A stretch of DNA of 64,000 nucleotides from Rhina ancylostomus (Eukaryota), in contig JARFYF010000063.1 of the NCBI GenBank assembly GCA_030265395.1, positions 43,092,702 to 43,156,701 of the forward strand. The letters run 5' to 3'. The notes below the pieces were generated by a model. The model made no database searches. It was not told the DNA's origin and worked only from the letters and a program-made list of their open reading frames with translations. The translations under genes and the position numbers were made by a program. Below are positions 37,163-38,183 of the stretch, in pieces (position 1 is the first letter of the stretch; the number at the start of each line of letters is the position of its first letter).

Positions 37163-38183
37163 CTAGAATACACCTTTGTCTTCATATCCTCCATATCCAC
37201 CACCACCCTGGTTACCACCATACCCACCACCACCTCGGTTACCACCGTATCCACCACCACCCTGGTTACCACTGTACCCACCACCACCCCGGTTACCACC
37301 ATATCCACCACCATCCTGGTTACCACCATATCCACCACCACCCCGGTTACCACCATATCCACCACCACCCTGGTTACCACCATATCCACCACCATCCCGG
37401 TTACCACCATATCCACCACCACCCCGGTTACCACCATATCCACCACCATCCTGGTTACCACTGTATCCACCACCCTGGTTATCACTGTATCTGCCACCAT
37501 CCTGGTTACCACCATATCCACCACCACCCTGATTATTACTGTATCCACCGCCACTCTGGTTACCACCGTACCCACCACCACCCCGGTTACTACCATATCC
37601 ACCACTACTCTGGTTACCACCATACCCACCACCACTCCGGTTATCACCATATCCACCACCACCCCGGTTACCTCCATATCCACCACCACCCTGGTTATCA
37701 CCATATCCACCACTACTCTGGTTACCACCGTACCCACCACCACTCTGGTTATCACTGTATCCACCACCACCCCGGTTACCACCATATCCACCACTACCAC
37801 TATGAGTATCATCACTATTATCACCACCACTCTGGTGGCCACTGTATCCTCCACCTTGATAAGCACCATATCCTCCCCTTCCACCTCTATTTTGGTAGCC
37901 ACCATATCCTCCACCTCCACCACCACTTTGGTAGCCACTGTATCGTTCACCACCACCACTTTGATAGTTGCGGTATCCACCACCTTGGTAATTTCCACCA
38001 CCACCTCCTCCTCTCCCTCCTCCAAAATATCCAGAACTGTAACTGCTACGGGAGCCACTGTAACCATTTCCTCTTCCATAACCACCTCCTCCCCTATAAC
38101 CTGAGCCACGACCACTCCCTCTTCCACCAAATCCTTGATTGTCATAACGTGCCATCTTGGGGGGACGAGGACCATCACCAAAC
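37163..38183 (-). CDS. DHX9: DHX9 last coding exon: nuclear transport motif plus expanded RGG/Gly-Tyr low-complexity tail
   Basis: tacag|G then [17 protein letters not shown] at 37163-37165; 1021 bp, phase consistent. Confidence 0.95.

Follow-up and report, generated by a model that had tools for sequence, protein, structure and literature searches.

A coding nonapeptide minisatellite in the C-terminal tail of DHX9 from the ray Rhina ancylostomus and its relatives

The DHX9 gene and its last exon

The window, that is, the whole stretch of 64,000 nucleotides of Rhina ancylostomus DNA analyzed here, encompasses, on the minus strand, the 3' portion of a gene that can be assigned by sequence to the helicase DHX9. 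The assignment is based on the match of the penultimate exon to RNA helicase A in PDB (E 4e-18), the single match to the DHX9 anchor motif in the whole genome, and the exon-by-exon mapping of residues 444-1160 of P0002, a 99%-identical DHX9, onto positions 63999-38147, with no stops in the joined core. Pfam identifies the helicase core, HA2 and OB-fold domains in P0002, and the DExH core, HA2 and OB fold are present in the ray gene as well; the last exon of the latter encodes the basic motif followed by an RGG-rich tail that characterizes DHX9. Two N-terminal dsRBDs are present in P0002 and, in the ray, would lie past the end of the window. The features of the locus are the following.

42551..63999, minus strand: upstream DHX9 exons, corresponding to residues 444-1082 of P0002 by mapping; the gene extends beyond the window
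39930..40128, minus strand: penultimate DHX9 exon
38184..39929, minus strand: last DHX9 intron, GT..AG, phase 2; joint 38182-39930 in X8 and X10
37163..38183, minus strand: coding part of the last DHX9 exon, 339 aa plus a split Arg codon, TAG at 37165-37163; splice joint in a relative's contigs
38141..38182, minus strand: conserved basic anchor motif, putatively equivalent to the published NLS region (PMC2241912)
37829..38140, minus strand: irregular RGG/Gly-Tyr segment of ancestral type that can be aligned with shark tails
37787..37828, minus strand: acidic linker (GGDNSDD...) at the beginning of the batoid insertion, with similar linkers in the tails of skates and Narcine
37196..37786, minus strand: coding 27-bp minisatellite, 22 units, consensus YGGN(Q/R)GGGG, 197 aa (G108 Y22 N23 Q13 S13 R10 D8; net charge +2)
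37163..37195, minus strand: C-terminal cap; 7 of 10 batoid rows have related caps, the 3 rajid-type rows none
36764..37162, minus strand: likely 3' UTR, AATAAA at 36857-36852 and 36825-36820; X8/X10 contigs reach 36839/36764

The putatively equivalent basic motif of vertebrate RHA and Drosophila MLE is described as a nuclear localization signal region (PMC2241912). The reading frame of the ray exon is open from the canonical splice acceptor (exon start at 38183) to the TAG codon, and its length agrees with the approximately 340 aa proposed in an earlier, sequence-only reading of this DNA. Counted from the Arg that precedes FGDGPRPPK, the tail consists of 340 aa (40 Tyr, 4 Phe, 23 Arg, 49% Gly), contains 11 RGG and 14 RG motifs after the basic motif, and ends with KGVF; from the same anchor, the human tail measures 117 aa (P0179), within the 100-120 aa that the earlier reading had given. 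Tandem Repeats Finder reported three rows for the window, only one of which is such an array, namely 37191-37798 with a 27-bp period (22.6 copies, 84% matches, score 831). When split at Tyr, this array yields exactly 22 units that run from 37786 to 37196, 21 of them nonamers and unit 12 (37489-37466) an octamer, so that the claim of 22 tandem units, one of them of 8 aa, with neither frameshift nor stop, is borne out. Tyr and Asn are present in all 22 units, position 5 is occupied by Gln in 13 and by Arg in 9 of them, and only 8 of the 22 show the exact YGGN(Q/R)GGGG sequence, with 0-8 base differences between pairs of units. The head-to-tail, in-frame arrangement of the 27-bp units is that of a coding minisatellite, and the array, which consists solely of G, Y, N, Q, S, R and D (55% Gly), has a prion-like low-complexity composition (rich in G/Y/N/Q/S, with few aliphatic residues and no folded domain). 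A Pfam search identified no family on the ray tail, and no neighbor above 0.75 was found for it in the ESM Atlas. Long open reading frames on the other strand or in another frame (His-rich, 355 aa; Thr-rich, 353 aa; Val-rich, 364 aa) were dismissed as shadows of the stop-free repeat.

G makes up 46% of the mRNA strand of the array (minus, 37196-37786), which contains 12 non-overlapping GGNGGNGGNGG runs and shows a strong GC skew. This G-rich strand could form two-tier G-quadruplexes or R-loops, which might promote instability of the array; both structures are substrates of DHX9.

Several other features of the window deserve mention. A gap of 100 N at 54033-54132 is located inside a DHX9 exon, and no residue is missing on either side of it (AIE before the gap, PPP after it); therefore this is a false gap, which would break gene models. 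Similar 100-N gaps are found at 28043, 35280, 49638 and 56199. The last DHX9 intron harbors a SINE-like high-copy repeat (39220-39450) with a very high summed depth in runs X1 and X2. On the plus strand, an exon-like open reading frame (18280-18618) shows a weak match to the right-handed beta-helix family PF13229 (E 8e-5, below the cut-off), and 32922-33188 may be the last exon of the same gene; this reading frame may belong to SHCBP1L, the convergent neighbor of human DHX9.

Assembly and expression of the array

The window includes 18 runs of N, none of which falls within the array and one of which is located in a DHX9 exon. In the six sequencing runs compared, no contig spans the array, and the copy number is accordingly approximate, possibly off by a few units. 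Run X1, possibly the source sample, yields a 288-base contig over 37500-37787 with zero differences from the window, as well as pieces of the more uniform 3' units, none of them over 37267-37281, 37366-37398 or 37440-37499. The X1 contig that reaches the 3' units differs from the window by 5 letters (37223 and 37235 among them), compared with 0-2 in the neighboring contigs, at the level of contigs only. Over the most uniform units, the X1 contig depth is 1.3-1.8 times the expectation from the unit count in the assembly, which, if anything, would point to collapsed rather than inflated units; depth being no measure of copy number and X1 being possibly the source, this ratio was given no weight. 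In X8 and X10, which derive from another organism, one contig crosses the intron, with 39930 joined to 38182, and continues to the start of the array, and another contig covers the end of the array together with the 3' UTR; the notion that X8 and X10 are RNA is a guess, and X10 is marked as probably DNA. Contigs of X2 and X12, from other organisms, skip 378 and 234 bases of the array, respectively, which indicates either shorter arrays or misplacement among the units.

Taken together, the gaps in the assembly, including the one inside the exon, the lack of a contig across the array and the joints in X2 and X12 might suggest that the array is an assembly artefact or is non-coding, and the sequence-only reading had singled out an artefact or splicing out of the mRNA as the outcomes that would overturn it. 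Nevertheless, the units are not uniform, the X1 contig reproduces part of the array without a single difference, and independent assemblies give tails of 297, 336-349 and 394 aa. Furthermore, the X8 and X10 contigs splice into the exon and contain no joint that skips the array, and no strong internal donor or acceptor pattern was detected in the last exon. Neither outcome is seen in these data; we regard the artefact explanation as already largely refuted and, accordingly, as extremely improbable.

The best evidence of expression comes from skates. In a skate cluster, 15 of whose 21 members are listed, 10 of the 11 listed Logan members encode in-frame tails of 223-228 aa on contigs of 2.2-6.4 kb. 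We take these contigs to be transcript-derived because they are too short to be genomic, given that the last two thirds of DHX9 span 27 kb in the ray. By extension from the skate contigs, the long tail is probably expressed in R. ancylostomus as well; a search of the sequencing runs listed no RNA run of this species, which speaks neither for nor against expression.

Distribution and turnover of the long tails

In a tree of the helicase core built from 29 selected rows with the tail excluded (the rows do not equate to species, and two pairs have identical cores), the window is nearest to P0002 (99% identity over 711 columns) and belongs to a 10-row clade that also includes Rhinoraja longicauda and Narcine bancroftii and that we read as the batoids; its SH-aLRT of 92 does not reach the star threshold of the tool. 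All 10 rows of this clade have tails of 218-394 aa (218-229 aa in the skate branch; 297, 336-349, 340 in the window and 394 aa in Narcine in the others). The tails of 10 rows that group with Scyliorhinus (SH-aLRT 82) are 112-131 aa long. Among other cartilaginous fishes, Heptranchias has 151 aa, the sawshark Pristiophorus 236 aa and the chimaera Callorhinchus 255 aa, each built from different units; the coelacanth tail is 100 aa, that of mouse 226 aa and that of echidna 178 aa. Outside the chondrichthyans, we examined 198 proteins, including the best 120 of 659 and the best 120 of 677 matches, with isoforms counted separately and teleosts thinly represented; 176 of these contain the anchor, with a median tail of 104 aa. 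In this best-match sample, 6 of the 176 tails exceed 150 aa, two of which seem to be mispredicted, and only one, that of mouse, exceeds 200 aa. Thus, long DHX9 tails have originated repeatedly, are found in every sampled batoid row and are infrequent in bony vertebrates. As for the question whether equally long tails are common across vertebrates, which the sequence-only reading had put forward as a check, within this sample they are not common outside the cartilaginous fishes. The same reading had proposed a lineage-specific minisatellite expansion; the coding minisatellite and the tripled tail stand, but the lineage in question is the whole of the batoids, and expansion recurs elsewhere. Given the independent expansions in chimaera, sawshark, mouse and fly MLE, expansion is a recurring property of DHX9.

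Other taxa possess arrays of their own. Frog proteins P0168, P0172, P0234, P0239 and P0240 contain short arrays of the nonamers GGG(Y/F)RGG(N/S)Q or GGGFGGGNQ, the salmon protein P0021 has a decamer with GGNRGGGGY in its DHX9 tail, and the tail of the invertebrate-type protein P0257 contains YGNQSGG/YGNQNRG heptads; these arrays are convergent. Several invertebrate-type DHX9s have Gly-rich tail ends (among the first 44 listed of the representatives at 50% identity).

Ray-type units number 6-24 in the batoid rows (6-8 degenerate ones in skates, 18-24 in the others) and 0-1 in the 10 shark-type rows. Heptranchias and Pristiophorus each contain one strict (Y/F)GGNQ unit, located just before a ray-like C-terminal cap. 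At 99% core identity, the window and P0002 differ both in the number of units (22 and 18, respectively) and in their order; hence, the units turn over rapidly compared with the core. The DNA pattern of the unit is confined to the ray DHX9 locus (8 of 8 matches in the genome, for the exact pattern only), and we found no sign, by this exact pattern, that the unit was copied from another gene.

All 8 distinct amino-acid-changing variants of the unit are G/A transitions. The Gln/Arg difference corresponds to CAG versus CGG/CGA codons, and the Tyr-Ser units are TAC-AGT in 5 of 5 cases, with AGT following none of the 14 TAT codons; the Fisher p of 0.002 for this association is overstated, the units being copies of each other. 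The CpG observed/expected ratio of the window is 0.20. Because the variants are G/A transitions and the Gln/Arg and Tyr-Ser/Tyr-Gly variation falls at CpG sites, variation among the units looks mutation-driven, as expected from the decay of methylated CpG. The pairwise pN/pS between units is 0.60, and Tyr and Asn never change, which weakly hints at constraint, the units, as copies, being non-independent. In Narcine (P0013) and in the skate rows P0003, P0011 and P0045, some units have NW where the window has NR or NQ; judging from the protein, such units would be expected if CGG had decayed to TGG on the other strand.

Charge, selection and comparison with known systems

The composition of the tails was compared in 151 distinct sequences derived from 255 proteins, after 24 without the anchor and 14 that were short or Gly-poor had been dropped and the window added. 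Per 100 aa of tail, aromatic residues increase by 11.4 (r 0.97), acidic residues by 4.6 and Arg by 3.0, and the net charge changes by -1.0 (r -0.25). The mean net charge is +8.9 in the 21 tails of at least 200 aa and +11.6 in the 124 tails shorter than 140 aa, which translates into 0.026-0.049 per residue in the former and a mean of 0.113 in the latter. The ray tail has a net charge of +9 (human, +12; mouse, +11), of which the array contributes only +2, and combines 44 aromatic residues with 0.026 charge per residue, compared with 19 and 0.10 in human. This trend with length is dominated by skates, which account for most of the long tails, and includes only about six independent expansions; caecilian tails, with +18 at 166 aa and +14 at 144 aa, break it. 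According to published rules, more evenly spaced Tyr and a lower net charge per residue strengthen the phase separation of prion-like domains, the FET domains being at about +0.02 (10.1101/2021.01.01.425046). Given these rules, and given that aromatic residues scale with tail length and net charge does not, stronger self-association is predicted for the ray tail, and the altered condensate behavior suggested in the sequence-only reading is plausible. A tentative and, at this stage, rather doubtful generalization is that DHX9 tails expand by a rule, i.e., by addition of evenly spaced aromatic stickers at a net charge of about +10, which would convert an RGG box into a self-associating domain similar to those of TAF15 and MLE.

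In our assessment, the array is probably a tolerated coding minisatellite with a predicted biophysical side effect. Under the simplest scenario, a single YGGNQG-type unit near the C-terminus would have been the seed that was amplified by slippage or unequal crossover, likely a single time, in the common ancestor of rays and skates; decay of CpG would then have produced the Gln/Arg and Tyr-Ser/Tyr-Gly variation, and the array would still turn over through duplication and loss of units. The disordered RGG/Gly-Tyr tail likely tolerates large changes in length, and selection would maintain the frame and probably also the Tyr residues, together with a net charge that stays moderate. Through the additional neutral Tyr-Gly units, self-association is predicted to increase and the concentration required for condensation to decrease; the ancestral part is predicted to retain its roles as an NLS, in RNA binding and in methylation as in other vertebrates.

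Two adaptive readings compete with this explanation. Batoids could have been selected for a longer, near-neutral Tyr-sticker domain, with the charge held by selection and with stronger self-association, or residence in condensates or at RNA:DNA hybrids, as the benefit. Such tuning would account for the retention of the long tail in 10 of the 10 batoid rows, the invariant Tyr and Asn, the rise of Asp with Arg in batoid units (33 Arg and 24 acidic residues in Narcine; 10 Arg and 8 Asp in the window array) and the proximity of the charge per residue of tails of at least 200 aa to that of the FET prion-like domains (10.1101/2021.01.01.425046), and it draws support from the reports that the human C-terminal isoform phase separates (PMC9214545) and that the RGG domain drives recruitment to breaks (PMC13575197). 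However, the sequence, number and regularity of the units vary widely among batoids, the variants match CpG decay and a G-to-A bias, caecilian expansions do not follow the charge rule, and the trend itself includes only about six independent expansions; hence we consider this possibility unlikely, albeit worth keeping in view. Adaptation to urea/TMAO, whereby extra stickers would offset the weakening of condensates by urea, was a speculation of the sequence-only reading. Marine sharks, rays, chimaeras and the coelacanth retain urea, and three of the four lineages with tails longer than 200 aa are cartilaginous fishes (batoids, chimaera and sawshark), the remaining one being mouse (1 of 176), so that long tails are enriched among urea-retaining animals. 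Against this stand the short tails of the 10 shark-type rows, Heptranchias and the coelacanth, the long tail of mouse, and the failure of two FET-type RGG exons of the ray genome to expand, so that the proposal is unsupported, and we judge it very unlikely. In this control, which comprised the RGG exons of 2 of 3 FET-type loci (the third is on a 1,269-base contig without an RGG exon), the exon of what we take, from its motifs, to be an EWSR1-like gene encodes about 70 aa and that of a presumed FUS/TAF15-like gene about 34 aa; in human EWS, the RGG motifs span residues 560-638 (PMC9957100). The FUS/TAF15-like gene (L024 / G000:C54 near 31377800) has a very short last RGG exon that lacks a YGG-DR repeat array.

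Returning to the tolerated minisatellite, we consider it most likely that the expansion is near-neutral or mildly tuning and is not an adaptation to urea. On the other side stand the persistence of long tails in all of the batoid rows, none of which has reverted to the length seen in sharks, a pattern that neutrality by itself would not call for, and the constancy of the net charge, which may reflect selection.

The batoid-wide expansion is real and previously unremarked, although tails of this type have been described before as repetitive, labile and self-associating. Long batoid DHX9 proteins are already present in the NCBI annotation, and a search of literature listings outside the subscription journals did not turn up any study of the ray DHX9 tail. 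Should the tail be simply tolerant, it would show that an essential helicase can live with a 3-4-fold change in this disordered region, and this would set a limit on how fine the tuning of DHX9 condensation has to be. If the rule of expansion is true, the vertebrate series of 100-400 aa serves as a natural titration by which self-condensation can be told apart from RNA binding within a single essential helicase; if selection is behind the constant charge, the tails of ray, chimaera, sawshark, mouse and fly are ready variants that can test the number of stickers against hybrid recruitment, helicase damping and condensation. The ray nonamer also provides a clean natural model peptide for studies of Tyr/Arg/Gln stickers.

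Among the known systems, MLE of Drosophila melanogaster contains nine copies of the heptad GGGYGNN, which mediate self-association and RNA (ssRNA) binding and lower the helicase activity, and whose conservation does not extend to D. pseudoobscura or D. virilis; Supplementary Figure 2 of the same paper, an alignment of C-termini, could be relevant to the comparison with vertebrates (PMC2241912). Similarly to MLE, the ray array follows a basic NLS-like motif, is a Gly/Tyr/Asn tandem repeat with periodic Tyr and is lineage-restricted. The period, however, is 9 rather than 7, there are 22 rather than 9 copies, the units contain Arg, Gln and Asp, and the origin is independent; the functions given for the MLE tail are measured ones, those of the ray tail predicted. 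In human DHX9, the C-terminal isoform is PLAAC-positive and undergoes phase separation in vitro (PMC9214545), and recruitment to breaks requires the RGG domain, which also suffices for it and whose methylated Arg residues oppose 53BP1 (PMC13575197). The ray tail shares with the vertebrate RGG domain the anchor, an alignable first part and a similar net charge, and differs from the human tail in its length (340 versus 117 aa), its aromatic residues (44 versus 19), its RGG motifs (11 versus 4), its regular nonamer and its KGVF end. The mouse expansion (226 aa), being Phe/Gly-rich and irregular, is unlike the ray nonamer. The even spacing of Tyr in Gly/Ser/Asn/Gln and the charge of 0.026 per residue resemble the hnRNPA1 and FET prion-like domains (10.1101/2021.01.01.425046); unlike these domains, the ray array has a far higher Gly content (55%) and a strict tandem periodicity. 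The C-terminus of TAF15 contains 10 D(S)RGG(G)YGG repeats (PMC9957100). The logic of the ray unit, YGG-x-R-GGG, is nearly identical, with Tyr and Arg combined in one repeat and Asp balancing the charge, but it is implemented in another gene, with Asn in place of the TAF15 Asp and with Gln at more than half of the Arg positions.
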